Source: an archaeon
GTDB lineage: Archaea; Aenigmatarchaeota; Aenigmatarchaeia; Aenigmatarchaeales; DATDXV01
NCBI GenBank assembly: GCA_035289205.1
Contig: DATDXV010000021.1
Span: 1-49,051 of the forward strand
DNA length: 49,051 nucleotides
Direction of reading: 5' to 3'
Shown: positions 3,532-38,837 of the stretch, piece after piece
Layout: each line of letters starts with the position of its first letter
Numbering within the stretch: position 1 is the stretch's first letter
Notes under the pieces: model-generated
The model's input: the letters and a program-made list of their open reading frames with translations, nothing else
Databases searched by the model: none
What the model was told of the DNA's origin: nothing
Position numbers and translations under genes: made by a program

Positions 3532-3747
3532 ATGGAAATAAGTCTAGACACAAAAGCGAATGCCCTTTATATTAAATTCCAGAAAGGAAAGTTTGCGAAG
3601 AACAGGAAATTGGACAACGACACGATAATAGATCTTGATGAAAAAGGGAGAATTCTGGGTATTGAAATGTTAAATGCAAGCAAAAGAATATCTTCAAAAG
3701 ACCTGGAAAATGTAAAGGTAAGACTGCCTCTTCAGATCTCTTCTTAG
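3532..3747 (+). CDS. DUF2283-family small protein (putative antitoxin partner)
   Basis: 71 aa; ANALYIKF...IIDLDEKGRILGIEMLNASK matches the remembered DUF2283 pattern (D.LYI...vD.d..G.i.GIEil.as). Confidence 0.6.
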   Translation: MEISLDTKANALYIKFQKGKFAKNRKLDNDTIIDLDEKGRILGIEMLNASKRISSKDLENVKVRLPLQISS

Positions 3748-4520
3748 AACAGAGCAAATGCCAAATAGCCGACTAGGACCAGTATCAGTGAATGCTTCAG
3801 TCCGGCTCGCATTCTGCCCTCGGAAAGTTTGCCGATTACTATTCCAGAGAAGAAGCCCTGTATAAGAATGAGATAGAACAAAGTCCCGCTGTACAAGGCA
3901 GTAACGTCCTTCCCTCCGGTTCCTAAGGTAGAGAGGCTTGGAACAAGGAATCCCTTCAGTGATACAAGAACGCCTAGGAAAACAAAAAATATCACATACC
4001 CTGTTAACAGCTGCGAGTATACTTCAGCCTGCCTCTCCTTCCTTATCTTCTCTATGTCATACATCGCATTGACAACGCTGTCCAAAACCTTCGAAACATC
4101 CCCTCCGCTGTCATAGGCCTCGACTATGGCAGTGGTGACCCTCTTTACGGTAGTTCCTCCCACCTTGGCAAAATCTTCGATTATCTTGTCAAAAGGGACC
4201 CCCCAGTCAATCTTGACAGCCATCTGCTTCACATGCTTTGACAGGACGCCGTAATCATTCTTCTTTGATGAATGCAGCGCCTGAGGCAGTGTCATCCCAG
4301 CCTTCATGCTTTCAGACACGTCCGTCAGGAAGTCTGGAAGCTTCTCCTCTATCTCCCTGATCTCCTTGTATTTCAGGTATTCAATGGAGAGGGGGATTCC
4401 AAACGCAAAGATCGCGGAGGCTATGACAAGCAACTGGGAATTCAGGTAGAGATAGTTAAGCGCAAACAGCACAATGCCTGCTGTGATTGAGATTAATGCA
4501 ACGGTTCTTTCGTCCTTCAT
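3744..4520 (-). CDS. FlaJ/PilC/TadC-type pilus assembly membrane protein, C-terminal half (one T2SSF domain)
   Basis: LPDFLTDVSESMKAGMTLPQAL...DWGVPFDKIIEDFAK...AYDSGGDVSKVLDSV plus TM helices; ATG directly follows the in-frame TAG of the upstream half. Confidence 0.75.
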   Translation of the reverse strand: MKDERTVALISITAGIVLFALNYLYLNSQLLVIASAIFAFGIPLSIEYLKYKEIREIEEKLPDFLTDVSESMKAGMTLPQALHSSKKNDYGVLSKHVKQMAVKIDWGVPFDKIIEDFAKVGGTTVKRVTTAIVEAYDSGGDVSKVLDSVVNAMYDIEKIRKERQAEVYSQLLTGYVIFFVFLGVLVSLKGFLVPSLSTLGTGGKDVTALYSGTLFYLILIQGFFSGIVIGKLSEGRMRAGLKHSLILVLVGYLAFALF

Positions 4521-5456
4521 CTAGATCTCCCTTTGCGCGTTATAGAGGAAAATCAGGAAAAGGACATTCAGTGTCGGAATCACTATGAAAGTTCCGAGGT
4601 TCATCAGCAGCTCTATAGGCATCCCGTAGAGCGTTCCCCCGACATAGCTGAGTATTGTCAGGATGACCATCAGCAGCAGGGGTGTTGCTACCAACAGCGC
4701 TGTATAGATGTCAGCGTAAACAGAGATCTGCTGGTTGTACTGCTCCCTCTTCAGCCTGTAGTCAAACAAGGCCTTGTCTGCCTGCTTCTTCAGGTAATCT
4801 CCGATATCCCCGCCCGTATGCGCGGTTGCATACATCCCCTCCAAGAAATATTTCAGACCAGCGGAAGGGCTCCTTGATGCAACGTCCTTTATTGCAGTCA
4901 ATGGATCCACACCGAAGACCTCGATGCCCCTCGCAACCTTCTGGAACTCCCTTGATAGCTCCCCGTAGTCCCTGTATTTCGACATCGCCTTGAACATTGC
5001 TGATGGGGGCATTCCCGATCCAGCCATAGCGCTCATATGCAAAACAGCGAACGGCAGATTCGCATCGATCTCTGCCTTCCTGCTGCTTGCCCTTCCCTGC
5101 GGATAGCTGTAAAGGAAGAAGAACACCGCCGATGATGCTGTTGCGGAGAAGAGCAAAGCTCCAAGAAGGCTGAGCAGGAAATCTATCTTCAGCAGCAGGA
5201 TAAGGGTCAGCATAGGGAAAAATGTCAGGATGAAAGCCGCGGACGACGCAAGGAACATCAGAGAAATGTAGGTTGTCAGAAGCATCCTGATATCGCTCTG
5301 AACAAGGGCAGGCTTCAGCTGCAAGAACTTGCTCTCGTACTTTTTCGCATAATCTATGAACAGGCCTGTGGCAATTTTCCTTAATTCTGTCTTTTCTTCC
5401 TTTGCCTCTATCTTTTTAGATTCAGCCTTCTTCTGCCTCTTGGACTTTTTAGGCAT
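4521..5456 (-). CDS. FlaJ/PilC/TadB-type pilus assembly membrane protein, N-terminal half (one T2SSF domain)
   Basis: LPFAVLHMSAMAGSGMPPSAMFKAM...GVDPLTAIKDVA...TAHTGGDIGDYLKKQ plus TM helices; ends TAG 4521-4523. Confidence 0.75.
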   Translation of the reverse strand: MPKKSKRQKKAESKKIEAKEEKTELRKIATGLFIDYAKKYESKFLQLKPALVQSDIRMLLTTYISLMFLASSAAFILTFFPMLTLILLLKIDFLLSLLGALLFSATASSAVFFFLYSYPQGRASSRKAEIDANLPFAVLHMSAMAGSGMPPSAMFKAMSKYRDYGELSREFQKVARGIEVFGVDPLTAIKDVASRSPSAGLKYFLEGMYATAHTGGDIGDYLKKQADKALFDYRLKREQYNQQISVYADIYTALLVATPLLLMVILTILSYVGGTLYGMPIELLMNLGTFIVIPTLNVLFLIFLYNAQREI

Positions 5457-5490
5457 TCTCTAAATTAGAGGGGGCGATATATATTGATTA

Positions 5491-6186
5491 TTAACCGAGC
5501 TTCACGAAAGTCTCTTCCTTCGGATAAATCACGATGCCCTGCTTTGCAATGATCTTGTAGGGATGTATCCTCTGCGAATGCTCTGTTCCCCTCATCTTCC
5601 AGACAGTCACGCTCCTCGCGAACTGCGAATCCGTTCTTGTGTAGTACAGGACAACAACGCCGTCTGTGACAAACTCCTCAACGCCGAACCTGGAGAGGGA
5701 CTTCTGTTCTGGAAGAATCTCAGAAAGGATCAGGCTTGTGCACTTGAGCTTTCTCAGAAGCATGGAGAGATTGAATATGGTCCTTCTCAGCTCTGCTGCA
5801 TCCCTTATGTACAAACCTAGCGCGGAGACAGAATCAATCACAACCCTCTGCGCCCCGATCTTCTTTGCGCTGCTCTCAATAAGATCATAAACATCCTCCG
5901 CATGGAAAGGGTCATACCTTACGAAAAGCACTTTCTTCTCTTTCTCAAGCTTTTCAAAATCCCAGCCGAAAACCAATGCGTTGTTCTTTATGTTCTCTAT
6001 GGGCTCTTCCAGACTTACGTAAAGGCCTGTTTCACCTGCTTTGGCGCCGTTCCAGATGTATTGGCACCCATAAGAGGTCTTGCCAGTGCCAGCTGTTCCT
6101 GTCAGAAGTACCAGGGAACTTCTCAGGAAGCCTCCAGCCATGAGGTCATCCATGCCCTCTATCCCGGTCTTAACTCTCTCAGCCAT
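5491..6186 (-). CDS. KaiC/RecA-superfamily ATPase, FlaH-like
   Basis: GIEGMDDLMAGGF...LLTGTAGTGKTS (Walker A), VVIDSVSAL (Walker B-like); 231 aa; heads the FlaJ-like genes. Confidence 0.75.
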   Translation of the reverse strand: MAERVKTGIEGMDDLMAGGFLRSSLVLLTGTAGTGKTSYGCQYIWNGAKAGETGLYVSLEEPIENIKNNALVFGWDFEKLEKEKKVLFVRYDPFHAEDVYDLIESSAKKIGAQRVVIDSVSALGLYIRDAAELRRTIFNLSMLLRKLKCTSLILSEILPEQKSLSRFGVEEFVTDGVVVLYYTRTDSQFARSVTVWKMRGTEHSQRIHPYKIIAKQGIVIYPKEETFVKLG

Positions 6187-6222
6187 AAAGCTATAAATCG
6201 CAAGGCTTCTATAAAAACCTTT
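6187..6222. promoter_or_regulatory. divergent promoter region with two TATA-like boxes
   Basis: CTATAAAT 6191-6198 lies 25-32 nt before ATG 6223 (+). TATAAAAA 6210-6217 lies 24-31 nt before ATG 6186 (-). Both suggest leaderless transcripts. Confidence 0.45.
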
Positions 6223-6621
6223 ATGTTTGGCAAGGGTGTCTCGGAGTATGTGGCAGTTCTGCTGCTGATGATCATATCCCTGGCGCTGGCAGGCCTAATC
6301 TACATCTTCTACCAGTCTAACATAAACACAATCTATCCAGGGGAGCAGATAGGGGAGAAGTATGCTTCAACCAGGTCTTGCCTGAGCATTGATGAATTGA
6401 ACGCCGCTGCGGGGACGGCTTTGATGAGAAACTGCGGCCAAGTGCCGTTGAGCAGCTTTGCGCTTTACATAGACGATGTCAAGGAAACAGTTTCTCTTCC
6501 GCAAACGCTCCAGCCAAATGAGAAGTTCAACATAGCTTTCACGCCCCTCTCCGCCGGAAAGCATGTGATATATATATCATCGGACAAGACCTCTTCCGCA
6601 ATCATGAGGATTACAATATAA
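6223..6621 (+). CDS. archaeal type IV prepilin-like protein (start re-assigned)
   Basis: The track ORF 5902..6621 overlaps the FlaH-like gene antisense. The internal ATG gives MFGKG|VSEYVAVLLLMIISLALAGLIYIF. Confidence 0.65.
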   Translation: MFGKGVSEYVAVLLLMIISLALAGLIYIFYQSNINTIYPGEQIGEKYASTRSCLSIDELNAAAGTALMRNCGQVPLSSFALYIDDVKETVSLPQTLQPNEKFNIAFTPLSAGKHVIYISSDKTSSAIMRITI

Positions 6622-6646
6622 ATATAAACTCGCAGATACTCTTCCT

Positions 6647-8296
6647 ATGAAAAAGGCCAAGCAGAAGCCCGGCAAAGAAAAAGCTCCGGCTAAGATATCA
6701 AAAGCAATAAAGCAGCCTCTGAATTTAGATACTCCTTTGGCCAAGCTCAAGGCAGGGCTGTTAGGCAAGAGAGAAAAGATAAAGCTGCCGAAATTCGAAC
6801 TGAAAGAGCCCTCCAAGATTATAGTCCTTCCTGACGGAAAGGAGTCTGTAAAGTACGTTCTAATAGAGCCCTTTGCTTCTGCAGAAATCAAAAAGGTCGG
6901 AGGAAACGAAATGGTCTACACCATTTCAGAACCGCAGCTCTCAAAGGAGGAGCAGAAGATATATGAACAGATCGTGGGAGGCCTGATGGAGATACTGGAT
7001 GTGGAGCTCTCTTCCATAAAGGAGCATGGAGAAGCGCTGAAGTACCTTATGGAAAAGACGGAGGATGTAGCAGAGGAATTGAACATCAAGCTGAAGGATG
7101 AGAGTTACAGGAAGATATTATATTATATATACAGGAACCTGATAGGCTTCAACGAGATAGAAGCTGTTCTGAAGGACCCGTATGTCGAGGATATATCCTG
7201 CGACGGCACAGGGATTCCGATATACGTTGTCCATAGAAGGTATGGATCGCTGAAGTCGAACATAATATTCAAGGATGAGAACACTCTTAAGGATTTTGTT
7301 GTAAAGCTTGCTGAAAGGGCTGGAAGATTTATCTCCTATGCAGAACCCCTGCTTGATGGAACTCTTCCCGATGGTAACAGAGTCCAGGCTTCGTTTTCAA
7401 AGGACGTAACGTCAAAAGGACCGACTTTCACAATCAGGAAGTTCGCGGAAGAACCCTTCTCCCCCGTAGAGCTGATAAAGAACGGCACATGCTCTGAAGA
7501 TGTGTTTGCATACCTCTGGCTCGCTGTTGAGTCAGGGGCATCTGTTTTGATAGCGGGAGGGACAGCAACTGGCAAGACAAGCATGCTCAATGCTCTGTCA
7601 ATGTTCATTCCCTCTGCATCAAAGATAGTATCCATAGAGGATACAAGAGAATTAAATCTTCCGCACGAGAACTGGATCCCCTCTGTTACCAGGCCAGCCT
7701 TCTCAAAGGGATACGGGGAGATAACGCTCTTCGACCTTCTGAAAAGCGCGTTCAGGCAGTCTCCAGACTATGTCATTGTTGGCGAAGTTAGAGGGCAGGA
7801 GGCTTATGTAATGTTCCAAGGGATGTCTGCAGGAATGCCCTCGATAGGGACATTCCATGCAGGGAAGATGGAGGACGTTCTAAACAGATTGCAGAGCCCT
7901 CCCATAAATCTCTCTCCAGCTCTCATAGAATCGCTTGATCTGATAGTTGTAATGGTCCATGCAAGGGAGAAGGGAGAGAACGCCAGACGATTGAAGGAGA
8001 TAGTTGAGATTGAGTCCATTGACACGAAGACTGGAACAGCGAGAACAAACAGAGTCTATAACTGGGAACCTGCGGATGATACATTCGGCTTTGCAGGAAC
8101 GTCATGGCTTGTTCAGAAAATATCACAGCTCAAAGGAAGGGCAACGGAAGATTTGGAAGCAGATCTGAAGAACAGAAAGAATATCCTGGAGTGGATGAAG
8201 AAGAACAATGTTGTAAGGTTCAGGGATGTTTCTAAGGTTGTTTCCGATTACCAGAAAGATCCTGAAGATGTCTTGAAGAGATTGAAAATAAAGTAA
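6647..8296 (+). CDS. type IV pilus/archaellum-family secretion ATPase (FlaI/PilB/VirB11 type)
   Basis: Walker A LIAGGTATGKTS, Asp box IVSIEDTRELN, Walker B PDYVIVGEVRGQEA, His box GMPSIGTFHAG. Confidence 0.9.
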   Translation: MKKAKQKPGKEKAPAKISKAIKQPLNLDTPLAKLKAGLLGKREKIKLPKFELKEPSKIIVLPDGKESVKYVLIEPFASAEIKKVGGNEMVYTISEPQLSKEEQKIYEQIVGGLMEILDVELSSIKEHGEALKYLMEKTEDVAEELNIKLKDESYRKILYYIYRNLIGFNEIEAVLKDPYVEDISCDGTGIPIYVVHRRYGSLKSNIIFKDENTLKDFVVKLAERAGRFISYAEPLLDGTLPDGNRVQASFSKDVTSKGPTFTIRKFAEEPFSPVELIKNGTCSEDVFAYLWLAVESGASVLIAGGTATGKTSMLNALSMFIPSASKIVSIEDTRELNLPHENWIPSVTRPAFSKGYGEITLFDLLKSAFRQSPDYVIVGEVRGQEAYVMFQGMSAGMPSIGTFHAGKMEDVLNRLQSPPINLSPALIESLDLIVVMVHAREKGENARRLKEIVEIESIDTKTGTARTNRVYNWEPADDTFGFAGTSWLVQKISQLKGRATEDLEADLKNRKNILEWMKKNNVVRFRDVSKVVSDYQKDPEDVLKRLKIK

Positions 8297-9872: not shown

Positions 9873-10964
9873 CTACTTGCTGTGTATAACAAACTCGCAG
9901 CGCTTGTCCCCGCTTCCTATGCATTTGGTCTCAACAACCGTAAACCTCTTCTTGTTCGTGTTCTCCAGGTATCCGGCTATCATTCCAGCAACATACGAGC
10001 ATAGCCGTTTGTTCATGTTCTTTACTCCGGAGCAGAACGCGCACTCCTCAAGGACAAAGGTCATTGTCCTCCGATCAACAGCAAAGTGGCCGATCTTCAG
10101 CTTTTCGAAAAGATCGCAGAAGCCCTTCAGCCTGTCCCCCTTAAGCCTTGCCCCTATCTCTTTTCCAGATTCCCTTCCAATCCAGTAGAACAGAGCATGG
10201 GCGCCCGCGGAAGATAGGAATATTCCCAAGTAGAATGCCTGCGTCAATGCAAGATTTGCGTAGTCATCAAGGTCATGCCTCTCCTTCTCATCCTCAAACA
10301 TCCTGTCATAGATTGACTGCCTGATCCTCTTGAAGTCCGCAGGCTTCAATTCATCAAACTTATGTTCAGGCAGCTGGACAGCCCCAGCGAACTCATCTGC
10401 TTCCTTCCCTGCTGCCTTGCACTCGCTCTCAACAATGTTCACGGGCTGCCCTATCACAGCTTCAACGCTTCCCCCAAGAATACCTGTAGGCAGGAAGCAT
10501 GTCCTCTTCTTCACGTTCGGCAGATCCCAAGAATACATAAGCTCATTTACTTTGACCCTGAAGGTCTTTGCAGTCTCGTCAACCCAGAGGATTCTTGGCG
10601 TTCCTATCTTGTAGTATTCCCATCCCCTGAAGATCTTGTCAACATACTGCGGATCCTTCAGTACGCCTATTCCGGTGTACCCCTTCCAAGCAGCGCCGAG
10701 TTTTGCAACAAGATGGCCAACGCCCATTGTCTGAAGCAGCTGTTTTGTAGATTCCTCCCCGATGTACTTGCCCCAGGAATAGAGATACTGCGTGTATGTG
10801 TTTGATAGGGAAAGCATTGAGAAAAACACATCCTGGAATACAAGTATGTGCAGGTCGTCTCCGATGTTGGGCCTGATCGGAGGGAGTTGCCTGAACGGCC
10901 TTACTCCGAATTCCTCAAGACTTCTCGAATAATCCTTGTATTGTTTAGCCCATACTGGCAACAT
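9873..10964 (-). CDS. V4R-domain protein (long N-terminal extension)
   Basis: C-terminus ECAFCSGVKNMNKRLCSYVAGMIAGYLEN...VVETKCIGSGDKRCEFVI is the V4R Cys/Gly pattern. Confidence 0.65.
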   Translation of the reverse strand: MLPVWAKQYKDYSRSLEEFGVRPFRQLPPIRPNIGDDLHILVFQDVFFSMLSLSNTYTQYLYSWGKYIGEESTKQLLQTMGVGHLVAKLGAAWKGYTGIGVLKDPQYVDKIFRGWEYYKIGTPRILWVDETAKTFRVKVNELMYSWDLPNVKKRTCFLPTGILGGSVEAVIGQPVNIVESECKAAGKEADEFAGAVQLPEHKFDELKPADFKRIRQSIYDRMFEDEKERHDLDDYANLALTQAFYLGIFLSSAGAHALFYWIGRESGKEIGARLKGDRLKGFCDLFEKLKIGHFAVDRRTMTFVLEECAFCSGVKNMNKRLCSYVAGMIAGYLENTNKKRFTVVETKCIGSGDKRCEFVIHSK

Positions 10965-10965
10965 A

Positions 10966-11646
10966 TCAATCCCTCAAAACCACTCCTCTTTCCGTTGTTT
11001 CAAACTCAAGCCATTCCAAGGAATGCTTTGTCCCTTTCATCTTATCTACGCGCAGATACCTTTTGTTCTCCTCTATCTTGAATGATATCGAGCCATCAAC
11101 CACATAGCTCACTGTAGAAAGAATTCTGGGATCATGAACGCCCTCCTCAAGAATCATGACAAGATTGTATCCAGCTGTCTTGATCTTTGCTGTAATGACG
11201 GGGATGAACTTTATCACAAGGGTCGGGTCTGCGTAGAGCAGCAGCGTGGAAAGGGAGTCGAAGACCCCTCTCTTTACAGGCGCCCCGTTCAGGCTCCTCA
11301 GGACATCGCCGACAGTTATGTTCAGCTCATTGATGTTGCTCAGGTCTCCAATCTTATTCTCTCCTCCGCTCTCCCCAATGCGCCATGAGTATCCGTCTAT
11401 AAACTTCAGCTTCTCCTTCTCCACCTTTCCGAACCTCTGCAGGCTGTCAGTTATCTCCTCCGGACTGCTGTCAAATGCGACATAGATGACAGGCTGCCTG
11501 TTCTTCAACCCCTCCACAACAAACTGCTGGGCAATCGTGGATTTTCCGCAGCCAGGCGGGCCTATAAGGACAATAGAAGCGTTCTTCGGATACCCGCCCT
11601 CGATATGCTTATCAAGACCTATTATCCCTGTCTTTACACGATCCAT
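10966..11646 (-). CDS. KaiC/RecA-superfamily ATPase (single domain)
   Basis: GLDKHIEGGYPKNASIVLIGPPGCGKST Walker A; 226 aa; 1-nt gap to the next gene. Confidence 0.75.
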   Translation of the reverse strand: MDRVKTGIIGLDKHIEGGYPKNASIVLIGPPGCGKSTIAQQFVVEGLKNRQPVIYVAFDSSPEEITDSLQRFGKVEKEKLKFIDGYSWRIGESGGENKIGDLSNINELNITVGDVLRSLNGAPVKRGVFDSLSTLLLYADPTLVIKFIPVITAKIKTAGYNLVMILEEGVHDPRILSTVSYVVDGSISFKIEENKRYLRVDKMKGTKHSLEWLEFETTERGVVLRD

Positions 11647-11650
11647 CAGA

Positions 11651-12124
11651 TCACTTGAATTTTATCAAGAACTCGTCCACTTCATCTCCAAGGCCGCCGC
11701 ACAAGACTTCTGTAACCACAGTCTGCCTCTTCAGCCTTGCTTCCATTGCCCCGTCAATTATCCCGGCCTCGAAAAAGCAGACCGGTCTTCCAACGCTCTC
11801 CATGCCTGAGCTCGAAGCGGAATCCTTCAAAGCAACAATTATGCTCTTCTCGTCCTTCTCTTTAATCTCAAGCCTTCCAACTCCAAAATCAGAGAACATC
11901 TTTCCCAAGTCCTTTACAACATCAGCTACCTGAGAAGACTTGAAACTCTTTGCAGCCTCTTTCCCGAATTTCTTTCCGGCAAGATACAAGCTTGAGGATT
12001 CCGCAAGCGAAACCCACTGAAGGCTATGGACAACAGCCCTGAGATACCTGATATCAACTCTGTCATTCTTCCTGGGCTTCTTTGCCTCAAGAAGTTTTTT
12101 CACAGCCCCGTCAAATCCAGTCAT
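11651..12124 (-). CDS. V4R-domain protein
   Basis: PVCFFEAGIIDGAMEARL...VVTEVLCGGLGDEVDEFLIKF. Confidence 0.6.
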   Translation of the reverse strand: MTGFDGAVKKLLEAKKPRKNDRVDIRYLRAVVHSLQWVSLAESSSLYLAGKKFGKEAAKSFKSSQVADVVKDLGKMFSDFGVGRLEIKEKDEKSIIVALKDSASSSGMESVGRPVCFFEAGIIDGAMEARLKRQTVVTEVLCGGLGDEVDEFLIKFK

Positions 12125-26970: not shown

Positions 26971-27977
26971 GACACATCAATTTTCTAAAAGAAATAAATC
27001 CAGCTTCCGTAGTCACAATAATCTCCCACAAGGACTGCGTGGATGGCCTTGTATCTGCAACCCTGATGAGCAAGGTGCTTGCAAAGAACAGAATAAAGGC
27101 AAGAATATTTTTCAGCTCCGTTAAGGACGTTGCCAAATCTGTGGAGAGGTTCAGGAACTGCGACTATCTGATTATACTTGATCTGGCATCCGAATACTAT
27201 GTGGATGCGCTTTCCGGAATTAAGGCGAAGGTCCTTGTTATAGACCATCATGTTGTTCACAAAGACGGAAGCAACAAGAATGTTGTATTCATCAATCCCA
27301 GGCTTGAGCACAAGGAAAGATACCAACCTGCTTCTTATCTTATCTGGAAGCTGTTTCCAGAGGTTAAGGAACTTAATTGGCTCTCAGCAATTGGAACAAC
27401 CGCAGATTATGGTTACGATGACTGCAGGGATCTTTTAGACAAATTCTTCAAGATAGATGACAAGAACAAGCTGCTTGACACGGAAATGGGATTGATGGGA
27501 AAGATGGTAGCAGCAGCAATAACAAAACATGGCCACAGAACCACGATGAACATTCTATACAATGCGAAGAGCCTGAAGGAGATAGAGAAGAACAAGAAGT
27601 TTGTAGAAGCCTTCAAGGAAGCTGAGACCAGATTCGCTGCTGCGCTTGAAGAGTTCTATACAAACAAAGAGAATTATGGCAACGTTGTTTTCTCCCTTCT
27701 GAGCGAGGATAACAGCAGATATGGAGGAGCTATTGGCACGAAGCTCTCTTCCCAGAACAACGAGGAGGCTTACATAATTTTCGCTAAGCTTACCAGTAGG
27801 GAGTGTTCAGTTCATGGCAGGACCCATAATAAAAAATACAATCTCGCTGAAGCGTTCAAGAAGGTGTCTCATGAGCTTGGGGCACTGGGCGGCGGGCACG
27901 AAGCTGCCTCTGGAAGCAGGATAAAAATTAAGCAGATTGGAAAATTCAAGGAACTATTTCTAAAACATTTTCAATAA
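26967..27977 (+). CDS. DHH/DHHA1-family phosphoesterase (NrnA/RecJ-like)
   Basis: ISHKDCVDGLVSA, ILDL, VIDHH, GGGHEAASG; ATGA overlap with the HD gene. Confidence 0.8.
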   Translation: MRHINFLKEINPASVVTIISHKDCVDGLVSATLMSKVLAKNRIKARIFFSSVKDVAKSVERFRNCDYLIILDLASEYYVDALSGIKAKVLVIDHHVVHKDGSNKNVVFINPRLEHKERYQPASYLIWKLFPEVKELNWLSAIGTTADYGYDDCRDLLDKFFKIDDKNKLLDTEMGLMGKMVAAAITKHGHRTTMNILYNAKSLKEIEKNKKFVEAFKEAETRFAAALEEFYTNKENYGNVVFSLLSEDNSRYGGAIGTKLSSQNNEEAYIIFAKLTSRECSVHGRTHNKKYNLAEAFKKVSHELGALGGGHEAASGSRIKIKQIGKFKELFLKHFQ

Positions 27978-28965
27978 TATTTCTTCGCAACTTAAAAGTA
28001 TTAGCCCACATCGCATAACCGTTCCAACCGATAAGGACCTTGTCAATGTCGGAACGTTTTAGACCGCTAAGCTTCCTCTTCATCTTCGCCGTGCTGCTCT
28101 TTCTAAGCAGGCTATGATAATAGAACATGCGGTAGCCAAGCAGCTTTATGCCTTTATGGAGAGGACCGATCATTGATTTCTCAGGATGTAGCTCTAGCTT
28201 CAGGATATTCAGAAAAGCAGCTATCTGCTGCTTGTAGCCCTCCAGAACATGTCTATCCCTGTGAAGAATCACGAAATCATCCACATACCGAAGGTAATAT
28301 TTGGCCCTCAGCTGATGCTTCACGAACTGGTCGAGCTCGTTGAGGTAGAGGTTGGCGAAGAACTGGCTGGTCATGTTGCCAATCGGCATGCCCCTGCCCT
28401 CTGGAGCGTTCTCTTTCAGGATAGTCGTTATAAGCATAAGAACGTTTTCGTCTGTTACCTTTCTTCCCAGTATGCTGAGCAGTATATCGTGGTCAACGTT
28501 GGGGAAGTAATGCCTGATGTCTGCCTTGAGGAAGTAGCCTATAACCATATTGCTGTACTTGGCCCTTTTTACTAATCTGCCATTCTTCGAAACCTTTCTT
28601 TTGAATTCATCAAAACGCTTCAAAGCCGCATGCGCGCCCTTGCCTTTGCGATTGGCTACGGAATCATAAATGAAAGTCTTGTCGAAGATTGGTTCTAAGA
28701 TGTTGCAAATGGCATGGTGGACAACTCTATCTCTAAAGACGGAAGCGTGGATGACACGGGTCTTAGGATCCCTTATGATGAATCTCTTGAGTGGTCTTGG
28801 TTTGTAATTACAGTTCTCTAGCTCTGACTTAATTTTAGCGAGCTCTTGCTCCAGATTCTCCCTGAACTTTATCACATACCACTTCTTAGACTTGCCTTTG
28901 CTTGCCTTCCTGTAAGCCAGCAGCAGGTTCTCCATGGAGCAGAGCCTGTCGTAAAGCTCACCCAT
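27946..28965 (-). CDS. diversity-generating retroelement (DGR) reverse transcriptase
   Basis: RT motifs RFIIRDPKTRVIHA, KADIRHYFPNVDH, PIGNMTSQFFANLYL (DGR-type [ILV]GxxxSQ), RYVDDFVIL. 339 aa with no maturase/endonuclease domain. The TR lies 73 nt upstream. Confidence 0.9.
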   Translation of the reverse strand: MGELYDRLCSMENLLLAYRKASKGKSKKWYVIKFRENLEQELAKIKSELENCNYKPRPLKRFIIRDPKTRVIHASVFRDRVVHHAICNILEPIFDKTFIYDSVANRKGKGAHAALKRFDEFKRKVSKNGRLVKRAKYSNMVIGYFLKADIRHYFPNVDHDILLSILGRKVTDENVLMLITTILKENAPEGRGMPIGNMTSQFFANLYLNELDQFVKHQLRAKYYLRYVDDFVILHRDRHVLEGYKQQIAAFLNILKLELHPEKSMIGPLHKGIKLLGYRMFYYHSLLRKSSTAKMKRKLSGLKRSDIDKVLIGWNGYAMWANTFKLRRNIIENVLEIVP

Positions 28966-29038
28966 TAAATATCTCCTTTAGGCAGCCTAGGCTATTGGAG
29001 AGCCCATTGGAAAACAGGCCCATCTTAATGACTAAGAA

Positions 29039-29153
29039 GGATTTCCTGTTCGAGGGTCTGTTCGCATTTACGCCTCCATAGGAGTTCGCGTTGAACGACG
29101 CTTGACGGCAACTTCTGCTGCTATCGTCCGGATTCCAGTTGGACCTGAGCGAA
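29039..29153 (-). repeat. DGR template repeat (TR)
   Basis: Collinear with the VR in three blocks; all 14 differences are at TR adenines (coding strand); AAC/AAT-rich. Confidence 0.85.
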
Positions 29154-29372
29154 CGGTTTTGTAGCCTGTACATTAAAGAACCGCTTTTGGCGGCTACCAC
29201 TGCTACTTCAGCCTTGACTGTCGTAGCTGTATTTAATGGCTCTATTGGAGCGCTATGGACAGGCGTATAGCCTAGGCTTTTGCCTGGAGAAGTAAGATTG
29301 TCGGAGTGCCCCCCCCCGAAGGGAGAGGAAGGACTAGCTGCATAACTATCTCTAGAAACTATAGAGCCTAGG

Positions 29373-29380
29373 TTTTATAA
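29373..29380 (-). promoter_or_regulatory. candidate TATA box for the TR-RT transcript
   Basis: Minus-strand TTATAAAA 7-14 nt after the target stop codon; about 220 nt upstream of the TR. Confidence 0.3.
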
Positions 29381-29386
29381 GACTTT

Positions 29387-29920
29387 CTAGGAAAAGAATT
29401 TTCTTGCTTCCCTGTATTTCAGGGCGTCTTCCTTGAAGCTAAGAAGCTCCTGATACTCTGCCTCGTCTACCTGCCTTGTCTCTGCAGATTTCTGTGCAGC
29501 ACTTTTCTTTTCATCCTTCTCTCCAACCACAAAAGCGGAGAGCCCACGGGAATACCCGCCCGAGGGTCTGTCCGCATCCGCGCGGAACGACGCATCGCCC
29601 GGAGCCCAGTAGGACCAGAGCGAAGCTACATCATTCTCAAAATAAATAGGACCTTTCCAGACCTTCTTCTTCGGCTTTTCAAACAGTCCCGCTCCGATGA
29701 GCGTGTCTATGGCTGTTTCCTTTATCTTAGTCGTTATCTTTTCTCCGGTAAACGCCAGCTTCCCGTCCTTGATCTCCACCTCGGGGTTCGCTATGACAAA
29801 CCCTGCGGAAATTATGACCTCAGCATTATGAACCCAGTAATTGGTCGTTAAAGCCTTATATTCCGCGTTAGAGAATGTCTCATTGTAAGCCCTCTTTGTT
29901 GGAAGGACTCCTACCGCCAT
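29387..29920 (-). CDS. DGR target protein carrying the variable repeat
   Basis: 177-aa ORF. The VR encodes SLWSYWAPGDASFRADADRPSGGYS, an R...P...R..G..F pattern reminiscent of C-type-lectin/FGE-fold DGR targets. Confidence 0.75.
   Translation of the reverse strand: MAVGVLPTKRAYNETFSNAEYKALTTNYWVHNAEVIISAGFVIANPEVEIKDGKLAFTGEKITTKIKETAIDTLIGAGLFEKPKKKVWKGPIYFENDVASLWSYWAPGDASFRADADRPSGGYSRGLSAFVVGEKDEKKSAAQKSAETRQVDEAEYQELLSFKEDALKYREARKFFS
29519..29542 (-). promoter_or_regulatory. inverted repeat immediately 3' of the VR (possible DGR target-recognition hairpin)
   Basis: CTCTCC 29519-29524 / GGAGAG 29537-29542, 12-nt loop, 7 nt beyond the VR boundary. Confidence 0.4.
29549..29624 (-). repeat. 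DGR variable repeat (VR)
   Basis: 76 nt aligned to the TR; 62 identities, 14 mismatches, all opposite TR adenines. Confidence 0.85.
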
Positions 29921-29953
29921 TCCTGACTTCTTGCGAAGCTCCTTTCCGAGCTA

Positions 29954-30094
29954 GCCGGTCTGCCACCTGTCAAGGCCGGTGACGTATTTGCCGCTCTTCA
30001 GCTTTACAATCTGCACGCCAGGCTTGTCGAAAAGCTCCATCTTGTCAGCTGTATCGTATGCAACCTGCAGGTGAGCCTCCGCTTCGTTTGACAT
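29954..30094 (-). CDS. 47-codon ORF in frame with the DGR target, separated from it by TAG 29951-29953
   Basis: MSNEAEAHLQVAYDTADKMELFDKPGVQIVKLKSGKYVTGLDRWQTG*; TATA box 23 nt upstream of its ATG. Confidence 0.4.
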
Positions 30095-30116
30095 ATCTAT
30101 TATCACTATTCGGTAG

Positions 30117-30124
30117 TTTATAAA
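30117..30124 (-). promoter_or_regulatory. TATA box upstream of the 47-codon ORF / DGR target transcript
   Basis: TTTATAAA 23-30 nt upstream of ATG 30092-30094. Confidence 0.4.
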
Positions 30125-30190: not shown

Positions 30191-30505
30191 ATGCCAAAAC
30201 TGGAAGAAACGCATGTCATTAAGTTCAGGAGAAAAACAGAGATCATGGCAAGACTTATGCGCGAAGACGGGTACGATGCTAAGACTTCGGATAACGGCGA
30301 AACATTCTACTTGGATGTCAGGCACATGAAGGAAGGGAAGCTGGAGCGTCTGGGAAAAATAAGAACGAGAGCTGATAGCTATAAGTGGCGTGTAGACATC
30401 TATCAGACCGATGCGGCTCGGGATTTCAGGGAATATGTGATAAACATGTCAAATGCCTTCTTCGGACCAACATTGGAAATAGAATGGGATTCTAAAACAT
30501 CTTAG
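30191..30505 (+). CDS. hypothetical protein
   Basis: 104-aa ORF; no motif recognised. Confidence 0.45.
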   Translation: MPKLEETHVIKFRRKTEIMARLMREDGYDAKTSDNGETFYLDVRHMKEGKLERLGKIRTRADSYKWRVDIYQTDAARDFREYVINMSNAFFGPTLEIEWDSKTS

Positions 30506-32744: not shown

Positions 32745-32867
32745 TGGTGCGGGGGGCAGGATTTGAACCTGCGGACCTCTAAAGGACCAGATTTCTCTAT
32801 CATCTCAGAGATCAAAACTCAAGAGTTTCTTGAGTCTGGCGCCATTGCCGGACTAGGCGACCCCCGC
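32745..32867 (-). tRNA. tRNA-Leu(CAA) with about 36-nt intron at canonical 37/38 position, encoded CCA
   Basis: Hand fold: acceptor GCGGGGG/CCCCCGC, 3-bp D stem, anticodon stem CCAGA/TCTGG, loop CTCAAG|intron 32793-32828|A. 14-nt variable arm, T arm GCAGG TTCAAAT CCTGC, A73, CCA. Confidence 0.85.
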
Positions 32868-37704: not shown

Positions 37705-37885
37705 TGGTGCTCCCAGCGGGATTTGAACCCACGTTTCCAGTAATCCGAACCGAAGTTCAGATATCACCGGCTAACTTCGCTATCATAGGCTTGCGCCTCA
37801 ACCCTTTCGAGTCGCTCGATTGGCCAGCAAAAAGTTATCTTTTTGCTTAAGGCCGGTATCCTTGACCGGGCTAGACGATGGGAGC
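37705..37885 (-). tRNA. tRNA-Leu(UAA), 181 nt: 73-nt canonical intron plus an abnormally long (34 nt) variable region, encoded CCA
   Basis: Acceptor GCTCCCA/TGGGAGC, anticodon stem CCGGC/GCCGG, loop CTTAAG|intron 37773-37845|A, T arm GTGGG TTCAAAT CCCGC. TATA at -26. Confidence 0.7.
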
Positions 37886-38742: not shown

Positions 38743-38837
38743 TGGTGGGCCGAGCAGGATTTGAACCTGCGACCTTTACCGTGTGAGGGGTCCGCTCCTC
38801 GAAGAGGATTAACGTCATACCGCTAGACCATCGGCCC
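38743..38837 (-). tRNA. tRNA-Val(CAC) with 20-nt non-canonical intron inside the anticodon stem (about position 29/30), encoded CCA
   Basis: Acceptor GGGCCGA/TCGGCCC, Val-like D arm GGTCTAGCGGTATGAC. Anticodon stem TTA|intron 38790-38809|CC pairs with GGTAA, loop CTCACAC, variable AGGTC, T arm GCAGG TTCAAAT CCTGC. Confidence 0.7.

Follow-up and report, generated by a model that had tools for sequence, protein, structure and literature searches.

A Diversity-Generating Retroelement of a DPANN Archaeon with Template-Repeat Inserts Resembling Bulge-Helix-Bulge Introns

We analyzed a 49,051-nt stretch of DNA (hereafter, the window; contig DATDXV010000021.1 of assembly GCA_035289205.1) from an archaeon of the Aenigmatarchaeota lineage and found that it carries a diversity-generating retroelement (DGR), in which the template repeat (TR) contains three inserts that the variable repeat (VR) lacks. 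The element is chromosomal and belongs to a small, DPANN-type archaeon from groundwater. On the minus strand, a target gene containing the VR is followed by a structured RNA motif, the TR, and a reverse transcriptase (RT) gene. The initial annotation of this DNA had proposed a DGR composed of an RT, a TR, and, in the neighbouring target gene, a VR mutated at adenines. The proposal was strongly supported by the match of the RT to the solved structure 8ub7 and by the TR/VR mismatches, which lie at adenines only.

The RT gene (27946–28965, minus strand) encodes 339 aa with the motifs IGNMTSQ and YVDD and without a maturase or endonuclease domain, in full agreement with the annotated coordinates, length, and motifs. 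The protein matched Pfam RVT_1 (E 4e-21). Among the solved structures, its top match was bRT, the RT of the Bordetella phage DGR (8ub7; E 5e-55, residues 4–326), while group II intron RTs reached about 1e-20 in the same search. In the alignment with 8ub7, IGNMTSQ corresponds to IGSLTSQ, and the C-terminal W.G...WA.T region also falls within the match. A group II, retron, Drt, or Abi identity was rejected, as all of the NCBIfam models for these classes scored far under their cut-offs (for the group II model TIGR04416, 152 bits versus a cut-off of 300). A DGR in a DPANN archaeon is, by itself, ordinary. The annotation had described archaeal DGRs as rare, which does not hold within DPANN: 7,495 of 8,000 scored RT candidates reached E ≤ 1e-40, and the best-scoring matches with a source name were nearly all from Aenigmarchaeota or Woesearchaeota, most matches being unnamed.

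No Avd-type accessory protein was found at the window locus, as previously noted, since the interval between the target and RT genes holds no open reading frame (ORF) except one overlapping the TR. Avd is not universal among DGRs. The ORF over the TR (80 aa, 28958–29200) had no family match and was rejected as an accessory gene. A divergent 104-aa ORF (30191–30505) was also rejected, having no Pfam or other family match and being absent from other DGR loci.

The TR spans 161 nt (28993–29153), and the VR is an uninterrupted repeat of 92 nt (29533–29624, minus strand). The two repeats are therefore unequal in length and become collinear only after the removal of three TR-only inserts of 21, 18, and 30 nt (29122–29102, 29085–29068, and 29042–29013). 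The resulting 92-nt TR aligned with the VR without gaps and with 18 mismatches, all of which were at TR adenines; 18 of the 25 TR adenines differed from the VR, versus none of the 67 other positions (P 8e-14). Three TR/VR blocks and 14 mismatches had earlier been aligned by eye, and both were correct. The mismatches (29042, 29044, 29047, 29049, 29050, 29062, 29086, 29091, 29092, 29127, 29133, 29134, 29140, and 29146) are all TR adenines on the minus strand, and the formal alignment contained no mismatch at a non-A position of the TR. The probability that 14 randomly placed mismatches would all fall on the 21 adenines of these 76 positions is 1.7e-10. The annotation had overlooked the extra TR sequence between the blocks, and the TR extent that it gave (29153 to 29039) was too short. 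A fourth block (TR 29012–28993 with VR 29552–29533) adds four A-only mismatches, and the spacer that separates the TR from the RT gene is 27 nt (28966–28992) rather than 73 nt.

Following the minus strand, the TR consists of four segments, here termed exons, separated by the inserts (slashes mark the junctions). Exon 1 (TTCGCTCAGGTCCAACTGGAATCCGGACGAT, 29123–29153) is followed by insert 1 (29102–29122, 21 nt; GACG AT/A-GCAGC-AGAA-GUUGC-CGTC AA/G), exon 2 (GCGTCGTTCAACGCGA, 29086–29101) by insert 2 (29068–29085, 18 nt; ACGC GA/A-CTCC-TAT-GGAG-GCGT AA/A), and exon 3 (ATGCGAACAGACCCTCGAACAGGAA, 29043–29067), in which the mismatches to the VR are again A-only, by insert 3 (29013–29042, 30 nt; CAGG AA/ATCC..TCTTA-GTCAT-TAAGA..GGG CCTG TT/T). 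Each of the three is absent from the VR. Exon 4 (TTCCAATGGGCTCTCCAATA, 28993–29012) pairs with VR 29552–29533 with four mismatches, all at TR adenines, and resembles the terminal IMH* segment of DGRs (IMH, initiation of mutagenic homing). This terminal block shows A-only differences (AATA versus GCTT), and the GGGGT/GGAAT motif is absent at the window locus; relatives have clear GGAAT/GGGGT motifs and, just downstream of their VRs, G+C-rich hairpins with loops of 3 nt. Without the inserts, the TR reads SLRSNWNPDDASFNANANRPSNRNSNGLSN, which is rich in Asn codons, as usual for DGR templates, and two of its AAT codons arise across exon junctions. The 6-bp inverted repeat reported near the VR 3′ end does exist (CTCTCC/GGAGAG with a 12-nt loop, 29519–29542, minus strand; arms 29542–29537 and 29524–29519). 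Its first arm, however, lies within the last VR block rather than beyond the VR, and the repeat is weak and not distinguishable from chance. An A-tolerant k-mer scan of the window found no second VR.

The TR has no coding role and lies 27 nt upstream of the RT start, whereas the VR is inside the protein-coding target gene (29387–30094, minus strand). This gene encodes 235 aa in sister assemblies, and the VR covers codons 157–187, which read SLWSYWAPGDASFRADADRPSGGYSRGLSA. In the window, an in-frame TAG at 29951–29953 leaves a 177-aa ORF (29387–29920), which is also the product annotated by NCBI for this copy. The 177-aa start proposed earlier is accordingly off; the full gene runs from 30094 to 29387 and carries a nonsense change in the window copy.

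The 233-nt spacer between the target gene and the TR in the initial annotation holds a match to the RT-16 RNA motif (Rfam RF03019; 29156–29288, minus strand), with 58.1 bits relative to a gathering score of 50; the end of the match is 2 nt short of the TR. Of 16 related loci, 14 had RT-16 immediately 5′ of the TR, with scores of 65–107 bits (L006, L007, L011, L020, L028, L049, L052, L063, L081, L086, L092, L098, L100, and L101; loci of relatives are cited by number throughout). To our knowledge, the published description of RT-16 goes no further than 'found near RT genes'. The orphan motif now gains a context, as a structured RNA at the 5′ edge of the TR in the DGR clade of the window and as part of the DGR RNA. 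A palindrome, GCCTAGGC, is present in the TR-to-RT spacer (28966–28992, minus strand) and occurs only twice in the 49 kb, at 28985–28992, just 3′ of the TR, and at 29270–29277, in the first hairpin of RT-16. By chance, 0.8 copies were expected, and at least two occurred in 19 of 100 shuffles. Pairing of the two copies could close the TR into a loop. A CTAGG-like motif is recurrent in the TR-to-RT spacers of relatives.

The inserts were compared across 160 loci with RT homologues, half taken from genomes and half from metagenomes (80 each). At every locus, the region close to the RT gene was aligned against the locus itself, using a scoring that tolerates changes at TR adenines and permits long gaps. 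A TR/VR pair was obtained for 113 loci, and the removal of duplicates and messy cases left 81 archaeal-type and 14 bacterial loci. TR-only inserts of at least 12 nt were present in 16 of the 81 archaeal-type loci and in none of the 14 bacterial loci. Among loci with an RT at least 55% identical to that of the window, 13 of 20 had inserts. No clean VR-only inserts of at least 12 nt were seen among the aligned TR/VR pairs. Some relatives also showed small TR/VR indels of 3–9 nt, which fit slippage at AAC repeats.

Insert lengths ranged from 17 to 49 nt across loci. The three window inserts are all multiples of 3, whereas 11 of the 23 unique inserts are not, so that copying of the unspliced TR would break the reading frame of the target. 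In-frame deletion from the VR as the cause of the gaps was ruled out by the inserts of 17, 19, 22, 26, 28, 29, 44, and 49 nt in relatives. Slippage between direct repeats at the junctions was rejected as well, because the microhomology (0–3 nt) was inconsistent; what is conserved is an inverted complement. In an alignment of TRs with the inserts removed, the inserts occupied three homologous positions, and their presence or absence varied by lineage. The exons themselves have diverged among lineages, and on either side of the inserts, the VR of a locus follows the TR of that same locus.

Each insert is predicted from its sequence to fold as the core of an archaeal bulge-helix-bulge (BHB) intron, with 22 of the 23 sharing one geometry. 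A BHB is defined by two 3-nt bulges, with a 4-bp helix between them, at the intron-exon boundaries (PMC5829648). In the inserts, the upstream flank and the insert 3′ end form a helix of exactly 4 bp, which is joined through a 3-nt bulge on the 5′ strand to an inner hairpin, and the junctions lie 2 nt past the 4-bp helix on both strands. Full pairing of exon[-6:-2] with insert[-6:-2] was found in 22 of the 23 unique inserts, including all three in the window. Shuffling the inserts lowered full pairing to 1.9 of the 23 on average and 6 at most, and unequal offsets on the two strands lowered it to 0–3. The helix pairs were formed in 91 of 92 cases (21–44 of 92 when the partner was slid), and four pair types were present at each helix position, which indicates compensatory covariation. 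A fifth pair was possible in only 1 of the 23 inserts, confirming the length of exactly 4 bp. The first two pairs of the inner helix were formed in 23/23 inserts when the bulge was set to 3 nt, as compared with 1 or 8 of the 23 for bulges of 2 or 4 nt. The inner hairpin averaged 5.0 bp, versus 0.68 bp for shuffled interiors, and the first insert base was A in 22/23.

Unconstrained minimum free energy folding gave exactly the helix, 3-nt bulge, and helix for insert 2. For insert 3, it recovered the 4-bp helix CAGG:CCTG and the inner hairpin, and for insert 1, most of the 4-bp helix and the inner hairpin. The overall folding energy of the TR region was not unusual (z = -1.1), and the argument consequently stands on the conserved geometry rather than on stability. 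A tRNA intron served as the positive control. The 23-nt intron at position 37/38 of tRNA-Ala in L050, a Nanoarchaeota single-cell genome (AAA011-G17) with an RT 53% identical to that of the window, obeys the same rule, and does so at the true junction only (CTTG CA/...CAAG AG/).

Homing products of an insert-bearing TR were found in three loci from near-identical genomes (L007, L091, and L166; L007 and L091 are 99.1% identical over 3.4 kb). The three TRs are identical, including an 18-nt insert, and the loci carry three different VR alleles. The VRs of L007 and L091 differ at nine positions, all opposite TR adenines, and the L166 allele departs from the TR at adenines only. In all three VRs, the insert is missing at the same junction. 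Insert-free products have therefore been formed repeatedly in this relative. Two bulge adenines that are retained in the exon read TT, TT, and GA in the three VR alleles, indicating that these positions were templated and mutagenised. Two pairs of insert-free loci, L112/L113 and L137/L138, showed a related pattern: in each pair, the TRs are identical, and the VRs differ at 10 positions, all opposite TR adenines. These VR differences indicate that the DGRs of this clade are active in the sampled populations.

Archaeal BHB introns occur in tRNA, rRNA, and a few mRNAs, where the splicing endonuclease EndA cuts and the ligase RtcB joins. We propose that the TR inserts are probably BHB-type introns that are removed from the TR RNA through the EndA pathway before mutagenic reverse transcription; we infer all three elements of this proposal, namely the removal at the RNA level, EndA and RtcB as the agents, and the timing before reverse transcription. 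In this scheme, a single RNA would hold the RT-16 motif followed by the insert-split TR. The host tRNA-splicing endonuclease EndA would cut at the insert junctions, and RtcB would join the TR exons into a spliced 92-nt TR, with the predicted exon-exon junctions GGACGAT/GCGTCG, AACGCGA/ATGCGAAC, and CAGGAA/TTCCAATGG. The DGR RT would then copy the spliced TR, misincorporating opposite adenines, and the complementary DNA (cDNA) would replace the VR of the 235-aa target gene. On balance, we also find it likely that EndA and RtcB would thereby constitute an obligatory step in the information flow of the retroelement, with the master template stored in an intron-interrupted form and only the spliced RNA written to the target.

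The inserts may be more than passengers, as they break the DNA homology between the TR and VR and make the cDNA non-collinear with the TR. They could thus protect the master copy from self-homing and from TR-VR recombination. One locus is a natural VR-TR recombinant (L087, 2700–3510; Ga0315282_10000062). Its target gene enters a hybrid repeat whose upstream part resembles a VR and has no insert and whose downstream part resembles a TR and retains two unspliced inserts; the RT gene follows directly. The spacer and RT-16 have been deleted, and insert sequence is translated into the C-terminus of the protein (P0178). The deletion indicates that TR-VR recombination does occur in nature.

Several observations weigh against the splicing proposal. 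The involvement of EndA cleavage and RtcB ligation would follow only indirectly, from the absence of the inserts in the cDNA-derived VR, and a scan of 30 ORFs in the window revealed neither an EndA nor an RtcB gene. The outer helix with which the canonical hBHBh′ form closes its 3′ bulge is nearly absent (about 1 bp, versus 0.44 bp in shuffled sequences), which makes the motif a relaxed form, like hBH or BHL. Such relaxed forms are cut only by EndA variants with added loops; these loop-bearing variants are widespread in DPANN lineages rich in disrupted tRNA genes (PMC5829648). In one insert (insert 1 of L008), the helix has only three of its four pairs, and in most inserts, the junction positions are ambiguous by 1–3 nt because the flanking bases are adenines. 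In the three-allele case, the insert is the sole and terminal one, beside an IMH-like segment that is identical in all of the alleles, so the passage of the RT over this terminal junction is less direct than over internal inserts. Inserts 1 and 2 of the window are internal, with mutagenised template on both sides. Finally, the VR of the window locus is the same in all four assemblies that cover it and in the strain variant T39A.

The main rival explanation is programmed template jumping, in which the TR would stay unspliced and the RT would hop from the first base after the insert to the second base of the 5′ bulge, guided by the hairpin and the 4-bp helix. With the canonical outer helix nearly absent, the motif may not be an EndA substrate at all; moreover, RNA structure steers priming in the Bordetella DGR, and the motif is conserved beside a dedicated structured RNA, RT-16. 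Against such a hop, the two unpaired bases that precede the helix on the 3′ side are left uncopied, even though the RT would be unblocked there, and the 4-bp helix loses its 3′ strand only, while its 5′ strand is copied, unlike in hairpin-bypass deletions. In addition, the geometry is that of EndA substrates and is reproduced by a real tRNA intron, and the inserts are confined to archaeal relatives (16/81 versus 0/14 bacterial loci). We consider template jumping unlikely on these grounds. A narrower alternative concerns the terminal insert, corresponding to insert 3 of the window and the sole insert in many relatives, which might be a priming or recognition hairpin before the IMH*-like tag rather than an intron, with cDNA synthesis starting at its 5′ edge. 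The segment after this insert is identical in the three L007-type VR alleles, as expected for an IMH, and in the L007-type element it carries the fixed GGAAT versus GGGGT difference reported for the IMH*/IMH of Nanoarchaeota. The terminal insert nevertheless conforms to the strict geometry of internal inserts 1 and 2, which have to be crossed, and the bulge adenines 3′ of the helix are copied and mutagenised, contrary to snap-back priming from the helix. This alternative appears highly improbable.

Two further explanations dispense with both RNA processing and jumping. The inserts might be static relics, having entered the TR, or arisen through deletions in the VR, after the last homing event, with no transfer or processing involved. 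The invariance of the window VR over assemblies and the strain variant, the nonsense single-nucleotide polymorphism (SNP) in the target gene, and the lengths of the window inserts, all multiples of 3, are compatible with this view. It conflicts with the occurrence of the same motif at homologous positions in many diverged loci, where each VR matches its own TR on both sides, and with the precise RNA geometry of 22/23 inserts, which random insertions or deletions would not yield. Three distinct insert-free VR alleles under one insert-bearing TR, as well as the 11/23 insert lengths that are not multiples of 3, argue in the same direction. Late insertion into a dead element is thus ruled out as a general explanation, although not with regard to the current activity of the window copy, and we rate the relic view slightly below even the terminal-hairpin alternative. 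The other explanation places the exclusion at integration: the cDNA would be made from the unspliced TR, and heteroduplex or gene-conversion repair would drop the insert loops while transferring the point differences. In its favour, integration of the cDNA is the least understood step of DGR homing. Such exclusion would, however, give no reason for a conserved symmetric 4-bp RNA helix or a 3-nt bulge, and in Bordetella, a 36-nt exon tag placed in the TR passes into the cDNA. Of the four alternatives, we judge this one to be the least probable.

Among the known systems, the DGR of Bordetella phage BPP-1 (bRT, Avd, TR, Sp RNA, and the mtd VR) has an RT that is homologous over its full length to the window RT and shares IGxxTSQ. 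In both systems, the TR lies beside the RT gene, the VR is in the 3′ part of the target gene, and the TR-to-VR differences are at adenines only. Unlike BPP-1, the window locus has no Avd gene, its TR-to-RT spacer is short (27 nt), its TR is collinear with the VR only without the three inserts, and the target has no detectable C-type lectin fold. The DGRs of Nanoarchaeota and other DPANN archaea (Paul et al. 2015, PMC4372165) belong to the same RT clade, are chromosomal, and lack Avd. They have GGAAT (IMH*) and GGGGT (IMH) motifs and hairpins with trinucleotide loops, as in the relatives of the window, and were described with collinear TR/VR pairs. The window locus differs from them in lacking both GGGGT/GGAAT and a G+C-rich hairpin.

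The inserts share with BHB introns the 3-nt bulge, the exact 4-bp helix, the junctions 2 nt into both bulges, and the inner hairpin. They differ from known BHB introns in that the host RNA is a retroelement template, the helix closing the 3′ bulge is nearly absent, and the insert begins with A in 22/23 cases. An experimental parallel exists in Bordetella, where a td group I intron used to tag the TR did not appear in the cDNA or the VR, since it is the spliced TR RNA that the RT copies (PMC5703328). The td intron is artificial, self-splicing, and several hundred nt long, whereas the inserts described here are natural, 17–49 nt in length, and, if the proposal holds, dependent on host proteins. 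In a survey of DGRs, about 7% had a TR and a VR of unequal length, which was explained by slippage of the RT at AAC repeats (Wu et al. 2018, PMC5758913). Structured inserts of 17–49 nt do not fit this explanation.

Among the papers searched, none joins 'diversity-generating retroelement' with 'bulge-helix-bulge', and DGRs are joined with 'splicing endonuclease' only in a general study of protein-family variability. The text of the archaeal DGR paper (PMC4372165) does not mention TR insertions, gaps, or splicing. Interrupted TRs or TR introns were likewise not found in the text of two large surveys and a review, a scope outside which Paul et al. 2017 (Nat Microbiol) falls. As far as checked, a DGR template stored with tRNA-type introns is new. 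If the proposal is true, it would provide natural evidence for an RNA intermediate in archaeal DGRs, mirroring the intron-tagging of the Bordetella phage, and would extend the substrates of the archaeal splicing endonuclease, known from tRNA, rRNA, and a few mRNAs, by a new class. A host housekeeping pathway would then be tied to targeted hypermutation. It would also mean that DGR finders expecting collinear TR/VR pairs truncate or miss insert-bearing elements (16 of the 81 archaeal relatives and 13 of the 20 closest).

As for the state of the window copy, the stop codon in the target gene results from a T at 29953 (TAG), where three other assemblies of the locus have a G (GAG). The T may reflect a genuine nonsense allele, or else a difference in assembly or sequencing. 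The RT is shared by nine public contigs, and the upstream 1.26 kb is the same as in the window apart from 29953. Datasets from the source aquifer in which the window sequence recurs are ERZ27254752, ERZ28563803, SRR3989344, and JGI 3300025323. Based on the invariant VR and the nonsense SNP, the window copy of the DGR looks quiescent.

The target protein had no sequence match in Pfam, NCBIfam, or PDB. An exhaustive HMMER search recovered a family of 52 relatives of about 230–260 aa, in which the variable stretch resembles S-V-W-S-x-W...CF-A-x-A...P-S. The C-type lectin or formylglycine-generating enzyme (FGE)-like fold anticipated for the target was unsupported: an AlphaFold model built from 28 sequences was confident (predicted local distance difference test, pLDDT, 91.8), and with the whole chain as the query, it had no Foldseek match at E ≤ 1e-3 in PDB or BFVD. 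In L006 (3728–4558), a homologous target seemingly has another domain order, beginning with what is the middle segment in the window protein, which suggests a circular permutation or a rearrangement.

The window holds four tRNA-like genes, three of which are oversized: a tRNA-Glu of 95 nt (38743–38837), a Leu-like sequence of 123 nt (32745–32867), and a third sequence of 181 nt (37705–37885), all on the minus strand. Their sizes suggest that these genes are disrupted by introns. Neither a simple one-intron model nor brute-force enumeration located the introns, and the tRNA-Ala intron of L050, a clean case, was used instead as the control described above.

The genes neighbouring the DGR encode an isoleucyl-tRNA synthetase, an HD-domain protein, a DHH phosphoesterase, fibrillarin, Nop56/58, ribosomal protein S17e, a wyosine-formation enzyme, a KaiC-like ATPase, and a secretion-type ATPase with membrane proteins. 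Two T2SSF-like membrane protein genes and a T2SSE-like ATPase gene are clustered at 3744–8296 and probably form a pilus or archaellum-type assembly system. KaiC-like and V4R-domain genes are located at 9873–12124.

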